A stretch of DNA of 64,000 nt from NCBI GenBank assembly GCA_964558505.1, contig CAZLEI010000004.1, forward strand, positions 9,367 through 73,366, written 5' to 3'. This stretch comes from an uncultured Methanomassiliicoccales archaeon (GTDB lineage Archaea > Thermoplasmatota > Thermoplasmata > Methanomassiliicoccales > Methanomethylophilaceae). Shown here in pieces: positions 4,721-64,000 of the stretch. Within the stretch, counting starts at the first letter, position 1. Each line of letters starts with the position of its first letter. A program made the translations under genes and the position numbers. The notes beneath the pieces were generated by a model. It searched no databases. It saw only the letters and a list, made by a program, of their open reading frames with translations, and was not told where the DNA came from.

Positions 4721-6412
4721 TCATTTCCTCTTCTTGTTGTTCCTGATGATGCGGAGGTTCTCTTTCACCGCAGCGCGGATCTCGGTGGCCTGGTCCTCTC
4801 CGTCGGTGATGTCGGACTCTTTGAAGTGGAGGACTATCCATCCCTCTTCGCGGAGTTTGTCATCATTGCTCGTGTCGGCGGCCTCTCCGTCGACATAGAC
4901 GGCGACCAAGCTCTTCACGAAAGCGACGGGTATCTCGCAGGGACCGTAGTTCTTCCTGCACCTGAGGCCCTTGTTCCATGCCGCCCTCCTGAGGAGGGTC
5001 GACGGCGAGTTGTCGAACTCCAGGGTCTCGAAGTCGCCATCGGAGTCGGAGATCTCATCTTCGGATTCCTCTGCGGCCGCGATCGCGACCGGCTCCTCTT
5101 TGGCGGGAAGCGCCTCGATGGGCTCTGCCGCGGGGAGGACATCGATGGGCTTGGCTGCCGGGATGGCAGACACGGCCTCGGCCGCTTTGGCGACGGGGGC
5201 TTTCTCTTTCGGTTCTTCCTTGGGGACTTCCTTCGGTTCTTCCTTGGGTGCGGTGACCTGCAGGAGCATCTGCGAGATGTCCATTATCTTGATCTTCGAC
5301 CCGATCTTCTTCGCTCCCGCGGACAGGTTGAGCACGCAGAAGGGACAGGAGGTGATGAGCACTTCCGCACCGACTGCCTCCGCATCCCTGACCCTCTCGG
5401 CAGCGATATTGACGGCGAAATCGTTGAATTGGCTCTTGTATCCGCCGCCTGCGCCGCAGCACCTGGAGTTCATCCTGTTGCGGGTCATCTCGACGAATTC
5501 GACGCCCTTGATCTTCTTGAGGATGTTCCTGGGCTCCTCGAAGACGCCGGAGTGCCTTCCGAGGTGGCAGGGGTCGTGGTACGTGACCTTTGCCTTGAAC
5601 TCGTTGTTGAGGGGGAGTTTCCTCTCGCTGATGAGCCTGTCCACGTACTGTGTGAAGTGATAGACGTTCTGTCCGACTTTGGCGAAGTAGTTGCCGAAGT
5701 CGTGGGAGACGGTCTTGTAGCATCCGGAGCAGGTCATGACCATGTCCTTCGCTCCGATCCCGTCTGCCTTGTTGACGACGGTCTCAGCGGCGACAGCGGT
5801 GAGGCTGAGGTTCCCGGTCCTGAGTGCAGGTGAAGTGCAGCAGTACTCGTCGGCACCGAGGCAGTTCATCTTGACACCGGCGCGGTCGAGGACGACGACA
5901 CCGGCCTGTGCGATACCCTGCATCCTGTACGATCCGGTGCATCCGGCGAAGAAGACGACATCAGGCACGGCTGCCCTCTCGACGTTCGCAGGCCACCATG
6001 CGTCCCTTTTCTGAGGGGACTCCTTGTACGGGTTGCGGTTGGCCGCTATGCTGTTGGCGAGCGACTTGTGCGCGGACAGGGGGGCGACGCCTTCCTGGAC
6101 GAGCCATGCCCTGACCTTCTCCCAGAATTCGACGAGGCGGATCTGCGCGTGGCAGACGGCCTCGCAATTGCCGCATCCGGTGCACTTGTACATCGCATCA
6201 ACGAACTCGGGGCTGAGTGTGATGTTCCTGCTGAGCAGGCCGTCCATCACGCCAGCTCCTCTTTTGTCAAGCTGGCTGAGATAGTAGATCTTTCCCCTGG
6301 GCGTCACGGACTCCCATGGTGTCTGGGAGTGCGCCTCACAGACGTCGATGCAATAACCGCACTGAACACAGGCGGTCATCTCCTTCTGGATACGCGGCAT
6401 TTTGTCCAACAT
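4721..6412 (-). CDS. HdrD/GlpC-family iron-sulfur protein (2x[4Fe-4S] + 2 CCG domains) fused to a C-terminal DUF559/Vsr-like endonuclease-fold domain
   Basis: N-terminus has two CX2CX2CX3C ferredoxin motifs (CVQCGYCIDVC, CTGCGNCEAVC) and two Cys-rich CCG-type domains (…YCCTSP…, …RCCGAGGG…TSCPFC). A PKEEPKE-rich low-complexity linker follows. The last ~100 aa (LLRRAAWNKGLRCRKNYGPCEIPVAFVKSLVAVYVDGE…EEGWIVLHF) follows the Vsr/DUF559 pattern. Confidence 0.85.
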   Translation of the reverse strand: MLDKMPRIQKEMTACVQCGYCIDVCEAHSQTPWESVTPRGKIYYLSQLDKRGAGVMDGLLSRNITLSPEFVDAMYKCTGCGNCEAVCHAQIRLVEFWEKVRAWLVQEGVAPLSAHKSLANSIAANRNPYKESPQKRDAWWPANVERAAVPDVVFFAGCTGSYRMQGIAQAGVVVLDRAGVKMNCLGADEYCCTSPALRTGNLSLTAVAAETVVNKADGIGAKDMVMTCSGCYKTVSHDFGNYFAKVGQNVYHFTQYVDRLISERKLPLNNEFKAKVTYHDPCHLGRHSGVFEEPRNILKKIKGVEFVEMTRNRMNSRCCGAGGGYKSQFNDFAVNIAAERVRDAEAVGAEVLITSCPFCVLNLSAGAKKIGSKIKIMDISQMLLQVTAPKEEPKEVPKEEPKEKAPVAKAAEAVSAIPAAKPIDVLPAAEPIEALPAKEEPVAIAAAEESEDEISDSDGDFETLEFDNSPSTLLRRAAWNKGLRCRKNYGPCEIPVAFVKSLVAVYVDGEAADTSNDDKLREEGWIVLHFKESDITDGEDQATEIRAAVKENLRIIRNNKKRK

Positions 6413-6652
6413 ACGTCTTCCTCTTTATCGTGAATGGCGGCGTACCCTTCAGGTTCGCCTCCTTCTAATAAGGGAAAGGACATGTTAGCACAATATTTAG
6501 GCTTTCGGTTCTTCCGGCGGAGCCCTGATGTCGTCTGAAACATATGCGGACGGGCATTCGGCCGTACGGTGCCAGCCATCGATATCGGGAACAGTCGGCA
6601 CGCTTCATCGAACAGAGGGTCCGAAGTAAATAGCCAGCATGGCCGATTCCCA

Positions 6653-7027
6653 TCATGAGGCCAGTGAGATGGCCACTATCCTGCCCACGGCCGCACCGCC
6701 TACGCAGATGAACGTGTTGATGACGAAGTTGACCACCGCCAGCCCGGTCATGCCGGATGTGTATAGTTCCAGCGTTTCGACCGAGAACGACGACATGGTC
6801 GTGAATGCACCGAACAGTCCTATGAACAGGAAGCTCCTGATCTCGGCAGGCACCGAGCTCATGGAGAAAAGCAAAGCGGTCATCAGGAAGCACCCCGCGA
6901 AATTGACTATGAACGTGTTCCACGGTATCCCGCCCGGGTTCGTGACATATGTGCCCACCAGGCAGCGGAGCACTGCCCCGATCGCACCGCCGGCGGCGAC
7001 CAGCAGGAAAAATGTCAGCTGATCCAT
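6653..7027 (-). CDS. crcB: fluoride ion channel CrcB/Fluc
   Basis: Translation GGAIGAVLRCL…FLFIGLFGAFTTMSSFSVE matches CrcB motifs. Start chosen at ATG 7027 (MDQLTFF…), which gives the family-typical N-terminal length and has GAGGTG (Shine-Dalgarno-like) 8 nt upstream. The ORF track extends to GTG 7072. Confidence 0.85.
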   Translation of the reverse strand: MDQLTFFLLVAAGGAIGAVLRCLVGTYVTNPGGIPWNTFIVNFAGCFLMTALLFSMSSVPAEIRSFLFIGLFGAFTTMSSFSVETLELYTSGMTGLAVVNFVINTFICVGGAAVGRIVAISLAS

Positions 7028-7104
7028 CCGCACACCTCTTTCAACCACATTGCTCTGACGCATCTCAGGCACCTCTCGAACATCTCATTCACGATCCTGC
7101 AAGG

Positions 7105-7190
7105 CGTTGGCCGTTGCCATGGACGGTAGGAATCATCAGCGTATGCGGTTCCGGCGCTCGGCCGGGGGAGAAATCCATTCCCCGGACATA
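7105..7190 (-). promoter_or_regulatory. possible fluoride-riboswitch-like leader upstream of crcB (tentative)
   Basis: The minus-strand leader contains GCUGAUGAUUCCUACC, resembling the conserved 3' strand of the crcB RNA motif (…CUGAUGnCCUCUAC). It is preceded by a CCGGC…GCCGG stem, but the overall fold could not be fitted to the consensus by eye. Confidence 0.25.
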
Positions 7191-7284
7191 TGTCCGACAG
7201 CCGGAACGGTCAGAGGTTGAATAATGTTTCGGGACGCCGTCGTCCCGGGTGGTAAATGCGCCATTGGCGGCCGAATGATAATTA

Positions 7285-7358
7285 GTGGGCCTGGCCGGAT
7301 TTGAACCGACGGCCATCTGGTTATGAGCCAGACGCTCCACCAGCCTAAGCTACAGGCC
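7285..7358 (-). tRNA. tRNA-Met (anticodon CAT; elongator Met or Ile2-type, not initiator)
   Basis: Cloverleaf folds by hand: acceptor GGGCCUG/CAGGCCC, anticodon loop CUCAUAA, T-loop GGUUCAAAUCC, discriminator A. G1:C73 argues against an initiator. Confidence 0.85.
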
Positions 7359-7424
7359 CGTATGTGCGGTTAGACCCGATAAAGATAAAAAGATATCGGT
7401 TCAAACTGCGCGAAATGAAGAATA

Positions 7425-7500
7425 TGGCGCCGTCGCACGGGCTCGAACCGTGGACCTTGTGATTAACAGTCACACGCTCTACCAACTGAGCTACGACGGC
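7425..7500 (-). tRNA. tRNA-Asn (GTT), CCA encoded
   Basis: Acceptor GCCGUCG/CGACGGC, anticodon stem UGUGA/UCACA with loop CUGUUAA, T-arm CACGG-UUCGAGC-CCGUG. The 3' CCA is present in the DNA. Confidence 0.9.
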
Positions 7501-7525
7501 AGACCTATTGCAGCAAAAGTAAGAC

Positions 7526-7537
7526 TAATATTAAAGG
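7526..7537 (-). promoter_or_regulatory. TATA-like box (CTTTAATATTAG on the minus strand) about 30 nt upstream of tRNA-Asn
   Basis: AT-rich TATA-like element at the expected distance from the tRNA 5' end. Confidence 0.3.
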
Positions 7538-7538
7538 G

Positions 7539-7850
7539 TTATGGGCGTTCCGCGGTCTCGGTCTTCATTTTGACGACCATATCCGCCAAACTGTCCAGTC
7601 TTCCTGCGAGGCTTTTCATGAATTCCTCGTAATATTCCGTGACGACCGCTCCCTCGGAGGTGGCGGAGATCAGGCCGTCATTCTCCAGAAGGCGAAGGGA
7701 GTACCTGACCTTGTGCTTCGGTATGTCCAGCATCTCCGATAGACGTGTAAGGCCGATCGGTTGGTTGTCCTTGGTGACCGTCAGCATGCGGATGTGGCGC
7801 TCCAGGAGCTCCATCTCGTCATATGCCCTGCCGAAAACTCCGTCCTTCAT
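7539..7850 (-). CDS. small winged-helix DNA-binding protein (putative transcriptional regulator)
   Basis: 103 aa; the central segment LTRLSEMLDIPKHKVRYSLRLLENDGLI is a typical HTH/winged-helix recognition pattern. Confidence 0.6.
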   Translation of the reverse strand: MKDGVFGRAYDEMELLERHIRMLTVTKDNQPIGLTRLSEMLDIPKHKVRYSLRLLENDGLISATSEGAVVTEYYEEFMKSLAGRLDSLADMVVKMKTETAERP

Positions 7851-7958
7851 AAGACACCATCTGAATATGTGTATATAACCGTGCTATCGGATAGCAGTGT
7901 CAGAAGCGCTGCTGACACAAAACCACATGTCTGGTTGCGACGGCAGCAGGTCGCCGGA

Positions 7959-8129
7959 TCAGCGGCCGAACCAATACTGTCTTCCCCACTTGCTGTAGTT
8001 CGCCCACCATCCCTGGATGAACGATCCGCAACAGTCGAGGGCCTTCTGCTCTGCGTCGGGGCCTTTATAGGTCTTGTAGCAGTTCAGGCACTGGAATCTG
8101 AGATCAACTTCCTTAGCTTTCTTTGCCAT
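7959..8129 (-). CDS. small Cys-rich (zinc-ribbon-like) protein, 56 aa, not in the ORF track
   Basis: The reverse complement translates to MAKKAKEVDLRFQCLNCYKTYKGPDAEQKALDCCGSFIQGWWANYSKWGRQYWFGR*. It has a CxxC…CC pattern, lies in an otherwise empty 400-bp gap, and uses GC3-rich codons like neighbouring genes. Confidence 0.35.
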   Translation of the reverse strand: MAKKAKEVDLRFQCLNCYKTYKGPDAEQKALDCCGSFIQGWWANYSKWGRQYWFGR

Positions 8130-8266
8130 ATGTAACCCGATTGTCCGCTCTGTTAATAAATGTTGGCGATAGTGCCGATGGCGGCGCCTGGGATGGAAAA
8201 TCCATCGTATCGAATAGAAACAACGTGCAAATATTATATATATTTACAAGAACGTGCGTCTAGTCT

Positions 8267-9290: not shown

Positions 9291-9861
9291 TGTCGAATGC
9301 GTCAGGCGCCTGAAGGAAGCAGGGTGCAAGAAGCGCGTCATCATCCACTGCTGCACCGTGCGCGTGCTTGCGGACGAGATCGCCAAGGGCATACCGTCTG
9401 CAGATCCCGTCCTGGTCACGGCCGGGGCGCTCCTCCACGACATCGGAAGGGCGGTGGACCATTCGATAATGCACGCCAACGTCGGAGCAGACATGCTGTC
9501 GGACGCAGGCATGCCAGCAGAGCTGGTGGACATCGTCAGGAAGCACACGGGCGCAGGCCTGGATGCGCAGGACGCGATCGAGATGGGGCTCCCGGAGGGA
9601 GACTACATACCATCGAGCATCGAGGAGAAGATCGTGGCGCATGCCGACAACATGGTCAGTGATAACCGCCTGGTGTATCACGAGCACTCCGTGGACAAGC
9701 TGATGACGAAAGGTGCAGTACGCGGCGCAGAGAGGGTCGAGGCACTCCACAGGGAGCTGTCCACGATGTACGGCGAGGATCTGGACGTGCTCGTCCGCCG
9801 GCTCGGGGAATACCCCGTGCTGAAAGGCCCCTGCGCGAAGTACTTAGACGACAGGGCCTGA
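9253..9861 (+). CDS. HD-domain phosphohydrolase
   Basis: The HD motif (…LLHDIGRAVDH…) sits in the correct context. The start is ambiguous: ATG 9253 or TTG 9271, both overlapping the trm56 3' end. Confidence 0.75.
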   Translation: MRGGRPLSIYPNDVECVRRLKEAGCKKRVIIHCCTVRVLADEIAKGIPSADPVLVTAGALLHDIGRAVDHSIMHANVGADMLSDAGMPAELVDIVRKHTGAGLDAQDAIEMGLPEGDYIPSSIEEKIVAHADNMVSDNRLVYHEHSVDKLMTKGAVRGAERVEALHRELSTMYGEDLDVLVRRLGEYPVLKGPCAKYLDDRA

Positions 9862-54845: not shown

Positions 54846-54951
54846 CATGATCCCGCCACTCCATCCATGTTATCGGACATCCGCGGGAGAATCCTTTATA
54901 TCTTATTCCGATTCGCCAACTCGGGAATGCGTCGCGTTCCAGGATGAAAAC

Positions 54952-55506
54952 ATGACAGACACGAAGAAGCTCGGGAAGAGAGTCAAGATGTACAGAGAGA
55001 AACTTGGGCTGACCCAGGAGGACCTTGCTGCGAACACCGGACTAACCGTCTCCTACGTGCAGGATGTCGAAACGGGCGAGGTCTACCCCCCGATAGGTAA
55101 CATCATCAAGCTGTCCAGGGCCCTGGGCCAGAGGGTCGGTACCTTCATGGACGACCAGTTCCAGCCAGATCCCATCATCGTCCGCTCGGACGCAAGGGTG
55201 GAGGACACGTCCAAGAAGGGCGCAGAGGGCCATTATCATTATTACCACCTGGGAAGGGGCAAGACGGACAGGCACATGGAGCCCATGTTCATCAGGATAA
55301 TGGAGGATGACGTGAAGAAGATCTCATCCCACGAGGGAGAGGAGTTCATCATCGTCGTATCCGGGAAGATCCTGGTGAAGTACGGCAAGCAGGAATCGGT
55401 GCTGGAGGCGGGGGATTCGGCGTACTACAACTCCGTGGTGCCCCACTACATAGGAGCCATCGACGGCCCCGCTGAGATCTATGCGGTGCTGTATGTCCCG
55501 GATTGA
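54952..55506 (+). CDS. XRE-family HTH + cupin domain transcriptional regulator
   Basis: N-terminal HTH (LGKRVKMYREKLGLTQEDLAANTGLTVSYVQDVE) and C-terminal cupin beta-barrel (…EGEEFIIVVSGKILVKYG…). Confidence 0.8.
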   Translation: MTDTKKLGKRVKMYREKLGLTQEDLAANTGLTVSYVQDVETGEVYPPIGNIIKLSRALGQRVGTFMDDQFQPDPIIVRSDARVEDTSKKGAEGHYHYYHLGRGKTDRHMEPMFIRIMEDDVKKISSHEGEEFIIVVSGKILVKYGKQESVLEAGDSAYYNSVVPHYIGAIDGPAEIYAVLYVPD

Positions 55507-55515
55507 GGCGATATC

Positions 55516-57180
55516 ATGCCGTGCACACCTAGGGAGAACATAACGTCGGACGAGAGGCTCGGCGACCTGCTGGACAAATGCATCAGGAACCATCCGGACA
55601 ACGATGCCATAGTGTACGTTGACAGGGACCTGAGGCTTTCCTGGAGGGAGTGGGGCATCGAGGTCGACCGTGTGGCCAAGGGGATGATGGCCATGGGCAT
55701 CCAGAAGGGCGAGAAGGTCGCCGTGTGGGCGACGAACGTCCCGGATTGGGTGACCATAATGTTCGCGACCGCGAAGATAGGCGCGATCATGCTGACCATC
55801 AATACGAATTACAAATCCAGTGAGCTCGATTACGTGCTCAGGCAGTCCGACATGGAGAACCTGTTCCTCATCAACGGGGTCCGCGACTGCGATTACGTGG
55901 AAACGGTGTACGGACTGGTCCCAGAACTGAGGATCCAGCCCCGCGAATCGTTCCACAGCGACAAGTACCCGCACCTCAAGAGGGTGATATTCCTCGGTCC
56001 GGAGAAGCACCGCGGGATGTACTCCATGAACGAGCTCAAATCGCTCGCCGTGCAGACCGATGATGCGGAATACAAGGCGAGGCAGGACGCAGTGGACGTC
56101 CACGATGTGGTGATGATGCAGTACACCTCGGGCACCACAGGGTTCCCGAAGGGCGTGATGCTCACGCATTTCAACATAGCCAATGACGGGTACTGGCTGG
56201 GAGCGAACATGAACTACTGCTCCGATGACAGGCTGTGCCTCACGGTGCCGCTGTTCCATTGCTTCGGCTGCGTGCTCGGCGTGATGGCCGTCATCAACCA
56301 CGGCGTCACGATGGTCTTCTGCGAGGTCTTCGATCCCGTGAAGGTCATGACGTCCATCGAGGTCGAGAGATGCACATCCGTGTACGGAGTGCCCACGATG
56401 TTCATCGCCATGATGGAGCACAAGCTGTTCAACAAGTTCGATTTCTCTTCCCTGAGGACCGGTATAATGGCCGGATCTCCCTGCCCCATCAAGGCCATGC
56501 AGGACGTGGTCGAGAAGATGAACATGAAGGAGATCACCATAGTCTACGGGCTCACAGAGGCGTCGCCGGGTATGACCCAGACAACATGGGACGAGCCTTC
56601 GCTGGAGAGGAAGTGCTCCACGGTCGGCAAGCACCTCCAGGGCGTGGAGACGGAGATCCTGGACACGGAGACCGGGGAGATATGCCCGACCGGGGTGGTC
56701 GGGGAGTTCTGCTGCCGCGGGTACAACGTCATGAAAGGGTACTACAAGATGCCCGAGGAGACCGCGAAGGTCATCGACAGGAACGGTTGGCTCCATTCCG
56801 GGGACCTGGGCGTCAAGGATGCCGAGGGATACTTCTCGGTCACCGGGAGGATAAAGGACATGATCATCCGCGGAGGGGAGAACATCTACCCCAAGGAGGT
56901 CGAGGATTTCCTCTACCACATGCCCGGAGTGAGCGATGTCCAGGTGGTCGGCGTGCCCAGTGCAAAGTACGGCGAGCAGCCCGGTGCCTTTGTGATCCGG
57001 AAGAAGGGTCACGAGGACATGATCGAGCAGGATGTGCTCGACTACTGCAAGGACAAGATCGCCTGGTACAAGACCCCGAAGTACATCGCGTTCGTGGACG
57101 AGTTCCCGTTGACCGCCAGCGGGAAGATCATGAAGTTCAAGCTCCGCGAGATGGCTCACGAGCGTTGGCCGGATGCCTGA
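55516..57180 (+). CDS. AMP-dependent synthetase/ligase (acyl-CoA synthetase family)
   Basis: AMP-binding signature YTSGTTGFPKGVMLTH, plus conserved …YGLTE… and C-terminal …GKIMKFKLRE… blocks. Confidence 0.88.
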   Translation: MPCTPRENITSDERLGDLLDKCIRNHPDNDAIVYVDRDLRLSWREWGIEVDRVAKGMMAMGIQKGEKVAVWATNVPDWVTIMFATAKIGAIMLTINTNYKSSELDYVLRQSDMENLFLINGVRDCDYVETVYGLVPELRIQPRESFHSDKYPHLKRVIFLGPEKHRGMYSMNELKSLAVQTDDAEYKARQDAVDVHDVVMMQYTSGTTGFPKGVMLTHFNIANDGYWLGANMNYCSDDRLCLTVPLFHCFGCVLGVMAVINHGVTMVFCEVFDPVKVMTSIEVERCTSVYGVPTMFIAMMEHKLFNKFDFSSLRTGIMAGSPCPIKAMQDVVEKMNMKEITIVYGLTEASPGMTQTTWDEPSLERKCSTVGKHLQGVETEILDTETGEICPTGVVGEFCCRGYNVMKGYYKMPEETAKVIDRNGWLHSGDLGVKDAEGYFSVTGRIKDMIIRGGENIYPKEVEDFLYHMPGVSDVQVVGVPSAKYGEQPGAFVIRKKGHEDMIEQDVLDYCKDKIAWYKTPKYIAFVDEFPLTASGKIMKFKLREMAHERWPDA

Positions 57181-57677
57181 TCGGGCAGATCCGCATCGAA
57201 ACCTCTTATTTTCATTTTCATCGGGAGATGCCCGACACGGATCGTGTTAGGGAAATATTGGTCCACGGCCGCGGGGCACGTGGACCGAGGTATCAGAAAT
57301 GAAGAATGCTCAAGCCCAGATGGGGTAAGGGGCCCTGCAGTTTTTACTGCAGGATTATCGCGGTCATCAGTAGAGTCTTGCGAACCACCGTGGAGCGTCA
57401 GGTCGTAGCAGAGGTAAAGCACCAATCGGACACATCTTTCCTTGCCAAGGTCCTGTACTCTGAACAATAGTTCTCGCCGCTTATCTTCATGACTTGCCGT
57501 TTGGAAATTGTAGCTTACCTCCGAATTAGAATCTATGTACTACTATTTATACCTAATTGAATACGATATTCGTAGAAATTCTACTGAAAAATAATGAAAA
57601 CGTAGAAATAATATGATAAAACCCTGCCAATCGAATGCCTGGCCACTCTTTACGAAATCAGTAGCACGAGGTCATCG

Positions 57678-59252
57678 ATGGGAAGCCGTATCAATCCGCG
57701 GCCGTTATCTGTACGCATGAAGCACGATAACAGCGGCCTGAGGTCAGAAGTTCCCGCCTTCCGTGACGCAACGCGCAGATTCTACGCGAAAGAGATCACG
57801 GTCAAAGAATACAAAGGGATTTCCGGAAGGTTCGGAAGTTATGCCCAGAGAGGGGGCGAGCGCAACATGGTCCGCCTTCGTTTCGCGGGCGGAGCGGTAT
57901 CGGCCGACAAGGCGGCCTTCATCGCGGAGTGCATCACGCGTTACGGGATCGACATGGTCCATCTGACGACCTGTCAGGCGGTGCAGCTGCACAACCTCAC
58001 AGGCGAGGCGGCCGCGGACATAGTGGATGCGGCATTCGATCACGGCATCATAACCCTCGGCGGAGGAGGGGACTGTCCACGCAATGTCACCGCCTCGCCG
58101 CTGTCGGGCATCGAGCCCGGCGAGAACTTCGACGTGCTGCCATATGCGGAGATCGCAGAATCATATCTGCTGAGTATCCTCGACAGCATCAAGCTCCCGA
58201 GGAAGCTGAAGGTCGGATTCTCCAACTCTTCCGAGAATACGACACATGTGACATTCAGGGACCTCGGGTTCGCATCCGCTCCCGACGGCACGTTCGACGT
58301 GTACTGCGCCGGCGGTCTGGGGAACAACCCCCTCATGGGCATCCATGTGGCGACCGGCGTCGATCCATCGAAGATGCTCTATCATGTCCGCGCCATGGTG
58401 GATGTCTTCGTCAAGCACGGCAATTACGAGAACCGTTCCAAGGCCAGGACGCGTTACATGCAGGAGTCGATGGGCGAGGACGCCTTGCGTGCGGCATACG
58501 GCGAGGCGGTGGATGCGCTTCTGTCGTCGGGAGGTCTGGACATCTCCGCCGATGACAGATCCGTGCACAAGGCAGGGTGCGGGAAGATACAATCGGACCG
58601 CGTGCATCCTCAGAAACAGGATGGGCTGTACTATGTATCTTACCATCCTCTCGGCGGGGACCCGTCGCCGTCGAGGATGGTCGAGATGGCGGCCTTGGCG
58701 GCGGACATCCCCGAGGCAGGGATCCGCGTATCGACGGACGGGACGATGTACATAATCAATCTCACGGCAGAGGAGGCCGTCCGCGCCCTGGATGTCACGG
58801 ACGATGGTGCCCGGACGCTGTTCGAATCATCCGTGTCGTGCGTGGGTGCAACAATATGCCAGATCGGCCTTCGCGATTCCCGCGGGCTCTTGGACGGACT
58901 CATAGAGATGGAGCGTTCGGAGGGGTTCGCCGACGGTGTCCTGCCCAGGATCAACATATCGGGATGCACTTCCTCCTGCGGGGCGCATCAGATCGGGGTC
59001 ATCGGCCTGAACGGCACCACCAAGCAGATCGGCGGTTCCTCCCATCCGTGCTTCAATCTGCATGTGAACGGGTCGCATCTCCAGGGGGAGGAGCGTTTCG
59101 GGGAGCCCCTCGGCGCATTGGCCGAAGAGGATGTCGCGGAGTTCCTGAGGGATGTTGGGCGGGCGGTCGTGGCGTCGGGCATGATGTACCGCGCATGGTA
59201 CGATGCGGACGGCGGCGAGATAAGGAGGATCGCCGCGAAGTACATCATCTGA
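57678..59252 (+). CDS. nitrite/sulfite reductase family protein (siroheme-[4Fe-4S] type, small form)
   Basis: Two ferredoxin-like half domains and the Cys clusters …SCVGATICQ… and …GCTSSCGAHQ… that ligate the siroheme-[4Fe-4S] centre. Confidence 0.8.
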   Translation: MGSRINPRPLSVRMKHDNSGLRSEVPAFRDATRRFYAKEITVKEYKGISGRFGSYAQRGGERNMVRLRFAGGAVSADKAAFIAECITRYGIDMVHLTTCQAVQLHNLTGEAAADIVDAAFDHGIITLGGGGDCPRNVTASPLSGIEPGENFDVLPYAEIAESYLLSILDSIKLPRKLKVGFSNSSENTTHVTFRDLGFASAPDGTFDVYCAGGLGNNPLMGIHVATGVDPSKMLYHVRAMVDVFVKHGNYENRSKARTRYMQESMGEDALRAAYGEAVDALLSSGGLDISADDRSVHKAGCGKIQSDRVHPQKQDGLYYVSYHPLGGDPSPSRMVEMAALAADIPEAGIRVSTDGTMYIINLTAEEAVRALDVTDDGARTLFESSVSCVGATICQIGLRDSRGLLDGLIEMERSEGFADGVLPRINISGCTSSCGAHQIGVIGLNGTTKQIGGSSHPCFNLHVNGSHLQGEERFGEPLGALAEEDVAEFLRDVGRAVVASGMMYRAWYDADGGEIRRIAAKYII

Positions 59253-59305
59253 TTGAAAACGATGAAACGGTTTGAGCCGGCCCTTACGGGCCGGCGATAC
59301 AGCCA

Positions 59306-60418
59306 TCACTGCAGCTGCTCGGAGCAGAACGGGCAGAACTTAGGGGTCTTCCTGAGTCCGCTGAGGTCCTCTCCGCAGTACGGGCAGACGCTGAACTTCT
59401 TAGGCTCCCCGGTCGCCGACGGTGCCGGTTGAGGTGCCGCCGCGGGGGCGGCCTGCTGGGGCGCCGCGGCGGGCGCCTGCTTGCCGCATTCCTTGCAGAA
59501 CTTGTAAGGATAGTCGTTCACGCCTCCGCAGAACGGGCACATTATCTTCGGATTCTGTGCACTCGCTCCCTGCTGCTGCATCTGCTGCATCCCCTGTGCC
59601 TGCTGCTGCTGGTTAAGCTGCTGGTACATCTGGGGGAACAATAGCATTCCTGTTCCTATCGCGGCCCCTCCCTCCGAATTTCCTATGGCGTCGGCCATGC
59701 GGTCCATGACCTCGTACCTCTTGAACGATTCACCGTTCGCGCTGCTGAACTGCAGGTACTGGAAGACCTTCTCCTGGTCCTCGTCGGTGGTCCTGACCTC
59801 GTTGATCTTCAGCGAGAGGAGCTCGATGCCCCTCTGGGAGAAGTACTGCTCCGTCAGCACCTTGGTGCTGGTGGATGCTTTCTCGAGGTTGTTCAGAACA
59901 TCCATGTAGTACTGCTTGGTGAGTTGCTGGGTTATCTGCTCGTTTATGAACCCCTTCATGAAGGCGTTCACGTCGCCGGTGCTGAAGTTCCCCATCCCGC
60001 CGAGCACCTGCGTGAAGAATACGGGCACATCGTTGACGCGGAACTGGTACTCTCCGTTGGCCATGAGCGTTATCGGCACCTCGTACCCGACCTGGGCCTT
60101 GATCATCCCTCTGATGCCCCATTTCCCGTTGAACATCTTCTGCGAGACGTAGATGATCTCCGCCTTGAACGGCGATTCCTTGTATCCGAGTAGCACGTTG
60201 TACAGCTTGGTGAGCCACGGTATGTTGCTGGTCGTCAGGACGTGCCTGCCGGCCGGGAGCACTCCGAGCATCTGCCCGTCCCTGACGAATATCGCCACGG
60301 CGTGCTCGGGAACGGTGACGGATGTCAGCGTCCTCAGGTCGTCGTGCTCGTATCTGTACACTATGTCGTCCGGGCCCTGGCTTTTCCAGGATATGACATT
60401 CTCTTTGGCCATTCTCAT
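59306..60418 (-). CDS. SPFH/Band-7-like domain protein with Gln-rich linker and two C-terminal zinc ribbons (YdjI-like architecture)
   Basis: N-terminal …VISWKSQGPDDIVYRYEHDDL…AIFVRDGQ…GRHVLTTSNIPWL… matches the SPFH-like (Band_7_1-type) family. A poly-Q stretch (QQLNQQQQAQGMQQMQQQ) follows, then CPFCGG…CKECG and CPYCGE…CPFCSE ribbons. Confidence 0.8.
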   Translation of the reverse strand: MRMAKENVISWKSQGPDDIVYRYEHDDLRTLTSVTVPEHAVAIFVRDGQMLGVLPAGRHVLTTSNIPWLTKLYNVLLGYKESPFKAEIIYVSQKMFNGKWGIRGMIKAQVGYEVPITLMANGEYQFRVNDVPVFFTQVLGGMGNFSTGDVNAFMKGFINEQITQQLTKQYYMDVLNNLEKASTSTKVLTEQYFSQRGIELLSLKINEVRTTDEDQEKVFQYLQFSSANGESFKRYEVMDRMADAIGNSEGGAAIGTGMLLFPQMYQQLNQQQQAQGMQQMQQQGASAQNPKIMCPFCGGVNDYPYKFCKECGKQAPAAAPQQAAPAAAPQPAPSATGEPKKFSVCPYCGEDLSGLRKTPKFCPFCSEQLQ

Positions 60419-60969
60419 TCACTCTCCGTTGTAGCGCCGTCCCCGGCGAAGCCTTTGATGACCTTGTCCCTCTCGGTGAACTCCTCGATGACGGTGTCGA
60501 TCATCCTCTCGAAGTCCCTTATGGGCTTCTTCAGGTCCATGCCGCCGGAATCGATGTAGTCCAGGAGGCCCTGGGCGTCCGTGCGGATCTGCGCCGAGCC
60601 CTCCAGGAGCTTGGCGTCCCATTCGATGACGGCGTCCAGCTCCTTCTCCAGGACCTTCACAGAGGCCCAGATCCCGCTGTACCCGTTGACGGCCTTCCTT
60701 ATGCCCACTGCATACTTGTCGACCTTCGTCCTGATCCTCTCCACGTCCCTCATCAGGTCGACGTCGTTCAGCACGGCGCGCTGGATGGTGGCGAGGTCCG
60801 CCTTCGTTCCCTCCAGGGTGCGGGCGACCTCTTCGCGGACCGCCCTGTCCTCGTCCCTGCGCAGGTTCTTCTCCCTGTATCCCCTGTAGAAGGGGATGTA
60901 CATCGCGACCCTCTCGGTCAGGGAGCGGGTCCCTTTCATCTGGTCGTCCACTGTAGCATCGAATCCCAT
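60415..60969 (-). CDS. hypothetical coiled-coil protein (184 aa)
   Basis: Charged, heptad-like composition throughout and no TM segment. 4-nt overlap with the downstream SPFH gene suggests translational coupling. Confidence 0.55.
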   Translation of the reverse strand: MGFDATVDDQMKGTRSLTERVAMYIPFYRGYREKNLRRDEDRAVREEVARTLEGTKADLATIQRAVLNDVDLMRDVERIRTKVDKYAVGIRKAVNGYSGIWASVKVLEKELDAVIEWDAKLLEGSAQIRTDAQGLLDYIDSGGMDLKKPIRDFERMIDTVIEEFTERDKVIKGFAGDGATTESE

Positions 60970-61359
60970 TCAGTTCAACTCCTTCTTATTCGAAACTCCC
61001 AGGGCGATCGCCAGCATGGCGATGGCCAGGAGTATGACCGCGACGTAGATCCAGACGCTGACGCCCGGTACCGTCGCGGATATTATCGCGCACAATGCTA
61101 TGGCCACCAGCAGCACTCCCCATACGAGGCCGTAGCTGCGGGAGGAAGGTCCGAAACCCTTCTCCTCGCCCGATGCGAACACGGCGCGGACGAGCATGTA
61201 CGCTCCGAATATCAAGACAGCCGTTCCGATGGCCCCGATGACCCCGAACCCGCTGAACAGGAAGTACGAGACTATCCCGACGGCCACTGCCAGAACGAAT
61301 ACGCCGGCCGTTATGGCCAGGTCGCTCCTGGCGTTGATCCTATCCTTGTCGATTGCCAT
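60970..61359 (-). CDS. small integral membrane protein (4 TM, ~129 aa; DUF350-like topology)
   Basis: Four hydrophobic helices. Start chosen at M12 (MAIDKDR…) because a perfect AGGAGG lies 9 nt upstream; the ORF-track start is 61392. Stop abuts the next gene's ATG. Confidence 0.55.
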   Translation of the reverse strand: MAIDKDRINARSDLAITAGVFVLAVAVGIVSYFLFSGFGVIGAIGTAVLIFGAYMLVRAVFASGEEKGFGPSSRSYGLVWGVLLVAIALCAIISATVPGVSVWIYVAVILLAIAMLAIALGVSNKKELN

Positions 61360-61396
61360 AGTTTTTTCCTCCTTTGGTATCAGTATCCTCATTGTA

Positions 61397-62941
61397 TTAG
61401 ATTATGAGCAAATCCCCTTTCGTCATGCGGATGCATCTGGCGGGGACGAGCTTCCCGAACTGCTCCGGCAGCGACACCGAATCGCCCTGGAACCTGCAGG
61501 GTATGAAGACGAGCCCCTTCACGCGGGGCTTGCTGAGCTTCAGCTTGTTGTCGCTGCTGGTGCGCTGTGCGAGGTAGAGGTCCATGAGCTTCTCCGCTTC
61601 GCGTTTGGTGCTCAGGGGGATCGCGACGCTGCGTCCGCCGATCGAGTTGTCGGCGATGGTGCCGGACAGGGCGGTTATGCCCTCTCCGCCGCTTATGCTG
61701 GTCTCGGACCCGCTTATCCCGGCCAGGATGCTGGTCTCCGGCCTGATCTTGAATATGTCCGTGACGGCGGAGGACGGGTCGCCCAGGCAGCCCTGGTCTA
61801 TCACGAAGTCCGCGGGCACGAACAGGTCCTCGGTGACCTCCACGCTCTTCTTCTTCCATAGGGCGCCGGTGACGAAACTGTATTTCAGATCGACGTCCCA
61901 GAACGGGATGAGCACATCCCCGCCCCCGGCGGTCGTCTTCACGGTGCCGATCCCTCCTTTGGCTGCGATGACGGTCGCCAGCTGTGCGAATATCTCGGTG
62001 AAGCGGGATTTGCTGTTCAGCAGGTACCCCCACTGGCCGGACCCGGAAGGTTTCCTCTCTATCACCGCCCTGATGGTGTTCAGGACCTTCATGGCATCCG
62101 GGCCGCCCCTGGCGGCCATGTCCGCCATGTCATGGAGGATGTTGGCGGTGCTGAGCTCCAGGTCGACGGCCTGGAACATTATCCCCAGCTCGGGGCTGGA
62201 GAACGCATTGGCCTTGACGGCCTCCAGGCCCTTGATGCCCGTTTCCACTTTGGTGACGCAACCTATGGTGTCCCCGTTCAGCAGGCTCTCGGTCCCGTTG
62301 CACACCTGCACCAGGGCCTCGAAGCGCTGGCAGGCGAGGTCGTACCCCTTGACCTTCTTCATGACGTTCCCGGCCTCGGTGAAGTTATTGGCCATCAGGA
62401 TGTACCTTCCCGGCTTGTCCTCGGCCAGGAGCTTGAGGTTGTTGATGGTCATGGCGTAGGCCTGTGTGATCCCGGCGGCGGTGTTGATCATGTCCTTGCT
62501 GTCGCCGTCCACGGCCAGTCCCTCCACGGACCTGACCTTGGCGTTGAATTCGAACGCCTTGTCCGACGTGTGCGCCGGATGGCAGTCGGTGTTGATGGTG
62601 AAGGGCAGGGCTATCATAGGGTACGCCAGGAGCGAGTTGAACGCGAAGCGGTACTCCGTGGTCTCCATCTCGACCTTCGGCCTGACGTTGTTCATGAATA
62701 TGCTGTGCCTGGCCACCGGGTCCACGTTCTCCGCCTGGGCCATGGAGAACCCCGACGGTATGGCGCTGCTGATCCAAGATCTGACCTGCCCCATCATCTG
62801 GTCGAGGTAGGCCTTGGCGTCTATGCGCTGCTGGGACGTCCCGCAGCTGGAGCATGTGACGATGGGGGAGTCCGATTCGACGGCCGCCCTCTCGAAGGGG
62901 GCGCCGCAGTACTTGCATCTGAGCATCACCTGGTCTTCCAC
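61397..62941 (-). CDS. hypothetical 514-aa protein with N-terminal zinc ribbon
   Basis: N-terminus CKYCGAPF…CSSCG, then a large soluble domain with no recognised motifs. GTG start 5 nt after the upstream stop, with an AGGTGATCC Shine-Dalgarno-like element overlapping. Confidence 0.55.
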   Translation of the reverse strand: MEDQVMLRCKYCGAPFERAAVESDSPIVTCSSCGTSQQRIDAKAYLDQMMGQVRSWISSAIPSGFSMAQAENVDPVARHSIFMNNVRPKVEMETTEYRFAFNSLLAYPMIALPFTINTDCHPAHTSDKAFEFNAKVRSVEGLAVDGDSKDMINTAAGITQAYAMTINNLKLLAEDKPGRYILMANNFTEAGNVMKKVKGYDLACQRFEALVQVCNGTESLLNGDTIGCVTKVETGIKGLEAVKANAFSSPELGIMFQAVDLELSTANILHDMADMAARGGPDAMKVLNTIRAVIERKPSGSGQWGYLLNSKSRFTEIFAQLATVIAAKGGIGTVKTTAGGGDVLIPFWDVDLKYSFVTGALWKKKSVEVTEDLFVPADFVIDQGCLGDPSSAVTDIFKIRPETSILAGISGSETSISGGEGITALSGTIADNSIGGRSVAIPLSTKREAEKLMDLYLAQRTSSDNKLKLSKPRVKGLVFIPCRFQGDSVSLPEQFGKLVPARCIRMTKGDLLII

Positions 62942-62945
62942 CGGA

Positions 62946-63881
62946 TCACCTGGATGAGAATCTCACGCTCTGGATCTGTATCTCGAGGGCGGCTATCTGC
63001 GCCTGCAGGCGGGCCTCCGTCTGGCGGAGGTCGTTGATGGCTATCTCGTGGTAATGCCTGGCGATCTCGTCCGCCTTGCGGGACACCGCCGTGTAGCATG
63101 CGCGGCACACGTAGACGGAATCGCCCCTGTCGTCGCAGGAGGAGACCAGGTCCCCGTTGTCCTTCCTGAGGATTGGGCTCACGTCGCTGGACATGGGGAA
63201 GAAGTGGATCCCCGAGCCGGTGGCGTTCCTTCCGCACATCCAGCAGGTGCAGCTCTGGGCGTACTTCTTGACCCTGGCCATGTTCTCGTTGCCGTCCTGG
63301 CCGAGCTGCCTGCGGTAGTTGTACGCTATCTGCTCGTACTCCGCACCTTTCTTGGGGTCGTTCCAGACGGCACCCGCGGCCAGGCACTCGTTGCCCACGG
63401 CCATGAGGGTCAGGCCCTTCTTGAGGCCGGACACGGTCGTGTCGCCGTTGAATATCTCCGGTATGATCAGGGTGTCTGCCCCGAACGTCATCTGGTATCT
63501 CTGGGCGATCTCTATGAGCGTCTTCCCCTTCTCGGTCTGGGAGGCTCCGTTGTCGCTGATGGCGAGCGCGTCGATCTCCGACGCGGTGAGTCCGCACTCC
63601 TTGACGAGCTTCTCGCTGTTCACGGTCGTGAGGCCGAATTCGAACTCCCCGACATCAATGGACTCCAGGGCCTTGGCCAGGCCGCGGTACGCTCCGGAGT
63701 CTCCGAAGTGCCCGTTCAGGTTCAGGATGGCGACCATCACTGCCGCGACGTCGTCCTTGCCGCCTTCCTTCGCAATGGATTTCTCGAAGATCCTCTTCGC
63801 TTTGTCGAACTCTCTCCTCTTCACGAGGTCCACTGCATCCTCGTACAACTGGTCTCCGTTCTTGAATAATCCGAATGCCAT
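62946..63881 (-). CDS. hypothetical 311-aa protein with internal zinc ribbon and C-terminal coiled coil
   Basis: CTCWMCGR…CRACY ribbon and a C-terminal heptad region (…LRQTEARLQAQIAALEIQIQS…). First gene of the five-gene minus-strand cluster. Confidence 0.55.
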   Translation of the reverse strand: MAFGLFKNGDQLYEDAVDLVKRREFDKAKRIFEKSIAKEGGKDDVAAVMVAILNLNGHFGDSGAYRGLAKALESIDVGEFEFGLTTVNSEKLVKECGLTASEIDALAISDNGASQTEKGKTLIEIAQRYQMTFGADTLIIPEIFNGDTTVSGLKKGLTLMAVGNECLAAGAVWNDPKKGAEYEQIAYNYRRQLGQDGNENMARVKKYAQSCTCWMCGRNATGSGIHFFPMSSDVSPILRKDNGDLVSSCDDRGDSVYVCRACYTAVSRKADEIARHYHEIAINDLRQTEARLQAQIAALEIQIQSVRFSSR

Positions 63882-64000
63882 GGTTCCGGTCTCCTGACTA
63901 TGGACGAGTATGCGGTTTCCTTGTAGTTAAAAGGCGCGAACCGGGGGACCGGCAGGGTTCAAATATAACAACGAAGCGATTATATATAGATATCAGATAT

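Follow-up and report, generated by a model that had tools for sequence, protein, structure and literature searches.

The SPFH proteins of the Band_7_1 class, the YdjI/SamI type, are widespread and have to our knowledge been studied only in Bacillus subtilis. In this organism YdjI (SamI) is soluble, has one or more zinc fingers at the C-terminus after a low-complexity linker, and needs the membrane proteins YdjG and YdjH to become localized at the membrane (PMC8581546; bioRxiv 10.64898/2026.02.06.704340). It is also required for PspA foci, according to the same two papers and, as far as its retrievable passages go, PMC11237479. YdjG has two zinc ribbons, a YpeB/NTF2-like domain and a transmembrane (TM) segment. 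The class and its link to the phage shock protein (PSP) network are already known. Here we analyze an operon of five genes, called A to E, in a stretch of 64,000 nucleotides (the window) from an uncultured Methanomassiliicoccales archaeon (positions 9,367 to 73,366 of contig CAZLEI010000004.1, assembly GCA_964558505.1). The explanation which we favour, and which we hold to be probable but by no means certain, is that the operon encodes a membrane-associated SPFH scaffold complex, and that this complex is a Methanomassiliicoccales-specific elaboration of a widespread, undescribed module. The searchable literature yielded neither the family to which D belongs nor its near-obligate coupling to Band_7_1 genes, the B-like and C-like companions or this archaeal operon of five genes.

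The closest studied system is the SamGHI (YdjGHI) operon of B. subtilis. In both cases the SPFH gene comes last and its product is a soluble Band_7_1 protein in which a low-complexity linker leads to the C-terminal zinc finger(s), genes for a zinc-ribbon protein and for a potentially anchoring membrane protein precede the SPFH gene, and the proposed role is the sensing of stress in the membrane or its organization. The two operons also differ. The operon studied here is without pspA, its membrane anchor would be a separate protein with four TM helices (4-TM), C, and B combines a single zinc ribbon with a TPR/Bro1-like domain of about 250 aa and lacks a TM segment. For D and A no counterpart has been described in the operon of B. 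subtilis.

The original prediction, made from the DNA sequence by eye, pointed to five tightly packed minus-strand genes around an SPFH gene. Five open reading frames (ORFs) were found at the coordinates it had claimed, and the abutting and overlapping junctions were seen. All coordinates below without a locus name are positions within the window.

62946-63881, minus strand: gene A, an ORF of 311 aa
61397-62926, minus strand: gene B, 509 aa (the longest ORF, to GTG 62941, has 514 aa)
60970-61359, minus strand: gene C, 129 aa (the longest ORF, to 61392, has 140 aa)
60415-60969, minus strand: gene D, an ORF of 184 aa
59306-60418, minus strand: gene E, an ORF of 370 aa

Gene D begins directly after C with no gap. 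The start of E lies on the stop of D, with 4 nt (ATGA) shared by the two, and we conclude that D and E are translationally coupled.

The conservation of the operon was examined in a genome scan with one genome per GTDB species. It gave 108 relatives of B and 80 loci were fetched; synteny was judged in the 64 species-representative loci with enough flanking DNA. The order A-B-C-D-E is intact in 61 of these Methanomassiliicoccales loci, at protein identities of 45-65%. B and D are separated by an ORF of 90 aa or more in 61 of the 64 complete loci, and gene A is always found directly upstream of B. The flanks differ from locus to locus: glutamine synthetase and glutamate synthase, or orotidine monophosphate (OMP) decarboxylase, TspO and a low-molecular-weight phosphatase. 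Since the order is kept while the flanks change, the adjacency must be selected and not fortuitous. The alternative, that unrelated genes lie side by side by chance, is refuted by these data; it is also at variance with a D-E pair kept across domains of life and with start and stop codons which overlap or abut, and its probability is negligible. The scattering of genes in relatives that would contradict a conserved five-gene operon was not seen.

Three loci deviate from the common order. L086 has A, B, D and E without C (7521-7541), and its D protein has a basic C-terminal extension. L070 and L085 (around 5000-8200) have only A and B, followed directly by an sfsA-like gene, and C-D-E is not at the locus. 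The homologues form 268 clusters for B, 272 for D and 63 for A, and those with an organism name all come from Methanomassiliicoccales or from unclassified Thermoplasmata/Thermoplasmatales metagenome-assembled genomes (MAGs). They carry no Pfam domain, save for one D homologue annotated as DUF7118. No further conserved co-directional neighbours were found at these loci, only a divergent type III glutamine synthetase with glutamate synthase in part of the order. The full archaeal operon was also present on contigs from bacterial bins (L040, L043, L048, L049, L050, L081, L083 and L084), assigned to Lachnospiraceae, Bacteroides ovatus, Bifidobacteriaceae, Ruminococcus, Dialister hominis and Firmicutes CAG:194 and belonging to one human-gut "cleanbin" MAG series; these are probably mis-binned Methanomethylophilaceae contigs.

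By its sequence E is a soluble SPFH protein of the YdjI/SamI type. It has no TM segment, and its match to Band_7_1 (PF13421) spans positions 2-204 of the 211 in the profile with a score of 93.7 bits (cut-off 24, E = 1.6e-26). A Q-rich low-complexity linker is followed by two CxxC...CxxC zinc ribbons at the C-terminus, so that both the linker and the zinc fingers are as in YdjI; the DZR match (E = 5.5e-6) has 26.9 bits and falls just under the cut-off of 27.3 bits. The proposal of an SPFH protein ending in zinc ribbons was thus correct. Between the SPFH/coiled-coil part and the linker lies a Gly-rich hydrophobic motif, GxGMLLFPQ (residues ~245-262, window 59640-59690), which is kept from archaea to bacteria as GxGxGMxLIPQ (E homologues L089-L168) and which could be a membrane- or partner-binding element.

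The coupling of D to E reaches far outside the order. An alignment of 106 D sequences was too diverse for a locus scan, and a subset of 14 sequences was used. The metagenome scan with this sub-alignment gave 80 loci, of which 73 independent ones extend 200 nt or more beyond D. In 72 of the 73 the start of a Band_7_1 gene lies between -8 and +12 nt from the stop of D, mostly between -1 and +3. The only split pair is that of L128 (860-1264), where a 134-aa retropepsin-like ORF with a DTGA motif lies between D and E. The partner SPFH proteins at D-family loci, archaeal and bacterial, also end in double zinc ribbons. Csl4-like and class I lysyl-tRNA synthetase genes are found as neighbours, which suggests that many of these metagenome loci are archaeal.

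Companions resembling B and C are found at the same loci. A zinc-ribbon plus alpha/beta protein of about 250 aa precedes D in 36 metagenome loci and has a C-terminal TM segment in two variants. Its zinc ribbon and the following helix align with the N-terminus of B (hhalign 96.9%, E = 1.7e-10), and it is without the helical domain of ~250 aa; one of these short B homologues has a faint PepSY match (E = 0.048). A 4-TM protein of about 113 aa follows E in 19 loci and is related to C in a profile-profile comparison (probability 98.1%, E = 1.2e-13, 110 columns). The combination of zinc-ribbon, 4-TM, helical and SPFH-zinc-ribbon proteins which the original prediction called a domain grammar therefore recurs far outside Methanomassiliicoccales. 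Upstream of D in L116 (5375-5740) and L125 (5454-5813), loci without the short B homologue and possibly from soil Nitrososphaerota, there is a divergent minus-strand gene for a CxxC...CxxC zinc-ribbon protein of about 120 aa with no Pfam match.

More distant D-family loci show other arrangements, in gene order:

L087: SWIM-like protein, D, Band_7_1
L171 (Anaerolineae): 2-TM plus zinc-ribbon protein, D, Band_7_1-DZR
L088 (702-4039) and L170 (846-3748): D-DUF4178 fusion, PspA_IM30, Band_7_1

The SPFH protein of L170 has a SHOCT-like segment at its end in place of the zinc ribbons, and a small SHOCT-like ORF comes next. DUF4178 is a known domain of PspA operons, as stated in the passages retrieved from PMC11237479. 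The recurrence of the D-PspA-SPFH arrangement in L088 and L170 ties the pair to the PSP network, a connection which had been suspected beforehand. The D-DUF4178 fusion lies directly upstream of PspA_IM30 and Band_7_1, which is the position of the PspA-associated accessory proteins in the operons treated in those passages. The operon studied here differs from them in having neither PspA nor DUF4178, and D is a helical bundle and not a CesT/Tir alpha/beta chaperone. Neither the D family nor its linkage with Band_7_1 appeared in the passages of PMC11237479 which were retrieved by keyword.

D has no Pfam family model. Its match in NCBIfam is NF047596 (LIMLP_15305), with 37.6 bits and E = 1.9e-9 over positions 26-172 of 175, and the equivalog cut-off of 210 bits is not reached. 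D and its archaeal and bacterial relatives align with near the full length of the 175-position model (37-63 bits, E from 1e-9 to 4e-17), which places them in that superfamily and outside the equivalog. No function is known for the Leptospira family, and LIMLP_15305 is found in the searchable literature only as a locus tag in a small RNA table. An exhaustive profile search with clustering at 50% identity gave 1,182 representatives of the D family, 516 of them at E ≤ 1e-10 and most of 165-185 aa. Named members come from Nitrososphaerota, Anaerolineae, Thermoflexus and Sumerlaeota. Some members are fused to N-terminal zinc ribbons (P0322, P0324) or to an N-terminal TM helix (P0374). A segment of the fusion protein P0416 is weakly like the anti-sigma zf-HC2 domain (E = 0.007), which hints at a signalling role.

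The AlphaFold2 model of D is a compact four-helix bundle with helices of 26-33 residues (pLDDT 81.7, pTM 0.77). The family has the invariant motif P-x-Y-x-G-Y-x3-N/E-L-R-R-x2-D-R-x2-R and a second loop G-Y-x-G, and in the model a beta-bridge links the two conserved loops (residues 35-36 and 104-105). D had been described as consisting of coiled coil throughout; it is indeed all-helical, but the model is not that of an extended coiled coil.

One explanation for the locus postulates that D is a highly divergent PspA/IM30/ESCRT-III protein which polymerizes on damaged membrane, and that the operon is the archaeal equivalent of PspA-YdjGHI. D is all-helical, has about the right size and adjoins a YdjI-type SPFH gene, and a divergent PspA-like system was one of the proposals of the original prediction. 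However, D has no match to PspA_IM30 (PF04012) or Snf7 at E ≤ 1, and none of 40 family members has one at E ≤ 0.01. No PspA, Vipp1 or ESCRT-III chain was found at E ≤ 10 when the family profile was run against the PDB sequences. The compact model lacks the long alpha1-alpha2/3 hairpin of the ESCRT-III fold. None of the five proteins matches PspA_IM30 in Pfam, and a phmmer search of the window and the Methanomassiliicoccales loci with the PspA of L088 gave no PspA-like ORF. Finally, L088 and L170 have a true PspA_IM30 gene in addition to, and distinct from, the gene for D. Judged by sequence, D is not a PspA/ESCRT-III protein, and we regard the explanation as very improbable.

Another explanation makes the operon a conflict or abortive-infection module. 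It hypothesizes that D is a membrane-disrupting effector of the CC/HeLo/MLKL-like kind, which is caged by the SPFH protein and freed on a signal arriving through the zinc-ribbon/TPR proteins. Apart from matches to zinc ribbons and TPR, the Pfam scans of whole alignments yielded just weak matches to DUF7118 and to NNH1 (a NACHT N-terminal helical domain). The NNH1 matches were seen in 11 of 40 D members, the best with E = 1e-4, and they speak for this explanation together with a weak fold similarity of D. It should be noted, however, that four-helix bundles match one another generically and that the scores are all modest. PADLOC-DB v2 has zero families matching any of the five proteins at E ≤ 1. 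Nearly all species sampled in the order have the operon, with housekeeping genes on its flanks, whereas defence genes are typically patchy. The D family was not found in 72,556 plasmids and 50,697 phages (tblastn) or in 2.9 million viral contigs (IMG/VR). In plasmids and phages E matched only remote SPFH genes of megaplasmids and one unannotated phage contig. A role in conflict is thus quite unlikely, and the antiviral alternative mentioned in the original prediction fails on the same points.

The remaining proteins pass no Pfam or NCBIfam cut-off for a named family, in agreement with the first impression that the partners belong to none. The PDB sequence and profile searches gave designed coiled coils for D, consensus TPR for A and nothing for B or E. 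B has a zinc ribbon and a helix (1-54), a disordered linker, an all-helical domain of ~250 aa (70-323) and an alpha/beta domain (329-509), and it has no TM segment; the zinc ribbon is N-terminal as predicted. A has an N-terminal TPR (8-44), a helical region, a CxxC...CxxC zinc ribbon formed by C213/C216/C259/C262, which are invariant across the alignment, and a C-terminal coiled-coil helix. The zinc ribbon and the coiled coil had been recognized beforehand, and the canonical TPR had been missed; it is supported by TPR_2 matches in 29 of 38 members and by consensus-TPR PDB chains down to E = 5.7e-20. All 63 homologues of A are confined to Methanomassiliicoccales. C has four hydrophobic helices, as had been noticed, and this small 4-TM protein is the sole integral membrane component of the operon and its only possible membrane anchor. 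Against Pfam it has sub-threshold matches only, the one to NfeD_membrane having 14.2 bits against a cut-off of 26 (E = 0.045), and no match to DUF350, one of the families suggested for it. Nor was any Pfam match to YdjH/TPM, DUF2491 or DUF2170 found among A to E.

The model of B (pLDDT 82.5) shows a helical domain which is TPR/Bro1-like. A more far-reaching formulation hypothesizes that D-E is a new, ancient archaeal and bacterial machine for membrane remodelling or gating, in which a cage formed by the SPFH oligomer surrounds D, a CC/HeLo-like four-helix bundle that would enter the membrane or change its shape when needed, and to which Methanomassiliicoccales have added Bro1/MIT-like adaptors (B and A). 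If true, the machine would follow the adaptor logic of ESCRT without ESCRT-III, as a prokaryotic precursor or analogue of it. Foldseek found nothing significant for the B model in the PDB (E ≥ 0.13), and the scores of generic TPR, 14-3-3 and designed repeat proteins come close to those of Bro1/MIT. The Pfam scans of the alignments gave no BRO1 or MIT signal for the central domain of B or the N-terminus of A. Bro1 and MIT domains bind ESCRT-III, and the studied locus has no known ESCRT-III partner. The resemblance seen in the model may serve as a lead only, and we consider the formulation itself unlikely to be right.

SPFH proteins classically partner with membrane proteases. This partnership is the starting point for an explanation in which the operon is an SPFH-regulated unit for membrane protein quality control or transport, where E and D gate a membrane protease (for instance of the HtpX-type M48) or a transporter and D is a PhoU/DUF47-like regulator. 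Genes for M48 peptidases do adjoin the module in L113 (3693-5120), L139, L161 and L002 (4659-5546)/L044, and the faint NfeD_membrane match of C and a faint PhoU hint point in the same direction. In L113 the M48 gene adjoins an opposite-strand C-like 4-TM gene and lies upstream of the short B homologue. However, the M48 linkage is sporadic (3/80 and ~1/80 loci), no protease or transporter is conserved in the operon, and the NfeD and PhoU signals are under any threshold, so that this explanation appears rather unlikely. The classical pairs themselves (stomatin-NfeD, HflK/C-FtsH, flotillin-YqiJ/YuaF) resemble the locus in the close coupling of an SPFH gene with the gene for a small partner and in having a small multi-TM protein in the operon. 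They differ in that E is without a membrane anchor of its own, D is a soluble four-helix bundle and not an NfeD OB-fold or a protease, and C does not pass as a member of the NfeD, DUF350 or YqiJ families.

The conserved operon, together with the D-E pair and the B-like and C-like genes elsewhere, leads us to the scaffold complex as the probable explanation, the locus being a lineage-specific five-gene version of a widespread SPFH module. The core of the module is the D-E pair; the adaptor B and the anchor C recur in other lineages. The order itself has added the large helical insert of B and gene A in its entirety. B would be a zinc-ribbon adaptor and A a lineage-specific accessory protein with TPR, zinc ribbon and coiled coil. 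By analogy with SamG, SamH and SamI we infer physical interactions among the proteins, recruitment to the membrane and a role in stress sensing: C and the zinc-ribbon proteins would recruit the soluble SPFH oligomer E with bound D to the cytoplasmic face of the membrane, the recruited assembly would organize or monitor the membrane, and it would pass a stress or integrity signal to partner proteins. As the D-E pair brackets a true pspA in some organisms, the module would belong functionally to the wider PSP/SPFH network of membrane maintenance.

Several observations weigh against the scaffold complex. There is no YdjH equivalent, since a TPM_phosphatase match is absent for A to E and C carries nothing beyond its four TM helices. 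Compared with the architecture of YdjG, B has one zinc ribbon and a C-terminal alpha/beta domain and is without a TM segment. The C-terminal alpha/beta domain of B is colinear with the short zinc-ribbon protein in hhalign without being significant (E ~0.1), and the profile match of C could be inflated by TM composition. A and B are kept without C-D-E in L070 and L085, which suggests that they may work on their own as a separable sub-module with its own function. The figure of 72 in 73 rests on loci chosen by similarity to one D subfamily. When five more distant D members were looked up singly, one was without an adjacent SPFH gene, the orphan D of Thermoflexus (L169, CP076326.1, 5001-5519), which has no Band_7_1 neighbour. 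Around this orphan there are small membrane or unknown ORFs upstream, and a convergent gene for a 687-aa protein and an ERCC3-like helicase downstream.

The limits of the operon and the starts of two of its genes can be proposed from the DNA sequence.

63882-64000, minus strand: upstream leader of the operon, AT-rich, read from the sequence
59276-59295, no strand assigned: hairpin GCCGGCCC-GTAA-GGGCCGGC, a perfect 8-bp GC-rich stem with a T-rich tract after it on the minus strand

The leader has TATA-like boxes at ~63989-63980 and 63968-63961 and a Shine-Dalgarno-like AGGAG 12 nt ahead of the start of gene A, and it is a putative promoter. On the near-identical contig L006 the next gene upstream of A is divergent and 232 nt away, which indicates that the operon begins with gene A. 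Public gene calls begin B at the ATG at 62926, which has a GGTGA element before it; this ATG is more likely to be the true start than GTG 62941, and the call from the internal ATG accounts for the missing exact database match of the 514-aa protein. The ATG of C at 61359 follows AGGAGG and gives a protein of 129 aa, to be compared with 121-126 aa for the C homologues, and is more likely than the start of the 140-aa ORF. The A/B and B/C gaps are 4 nt each with the longest ORFs, but 19 and 37 nt with the starts which have a Shine-Dalgarno element.

The stop of E and that of a convergent NIR_SIR reductase gene lie on either side of the hairpin, which is likely to be the operon terminator. It was not among the results of a simple terminator scan of the window, so we infer termination at this position. 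The plus-strand genes at 54847-59252, convergent to the operon, code for an HTH_3-cupin regulator (219 aa), an AMP-binding acyl-CoA-type ligase (554 aa) and the NIR_SIR sulfite/nitrite-reductase-like protein (524 aa); they are metabolic and unrelated to the operon.

The D family gives the Band_7_1 SPFH proteins of many archaea and bacteria a near-obligate, translationally coupled partner which Pfam does not contain. A minimal complex of D and E, with or without B and C, would be a handle on how soluble SPFH proteins reach membranes and act there. The link between SPFH and PspA is optional: PspA lies inside the D-E pair in some lineages and out of the operon in most, and this helps to separate the SPFH scaffold from the ESCRT-III functions in membrane maintenance. 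Methanomassiliicoccales are thought to be without a rigid cell wall. For this order, gut methanogens included, the five unannotated genes would constitute a core membrane module present order-wide.

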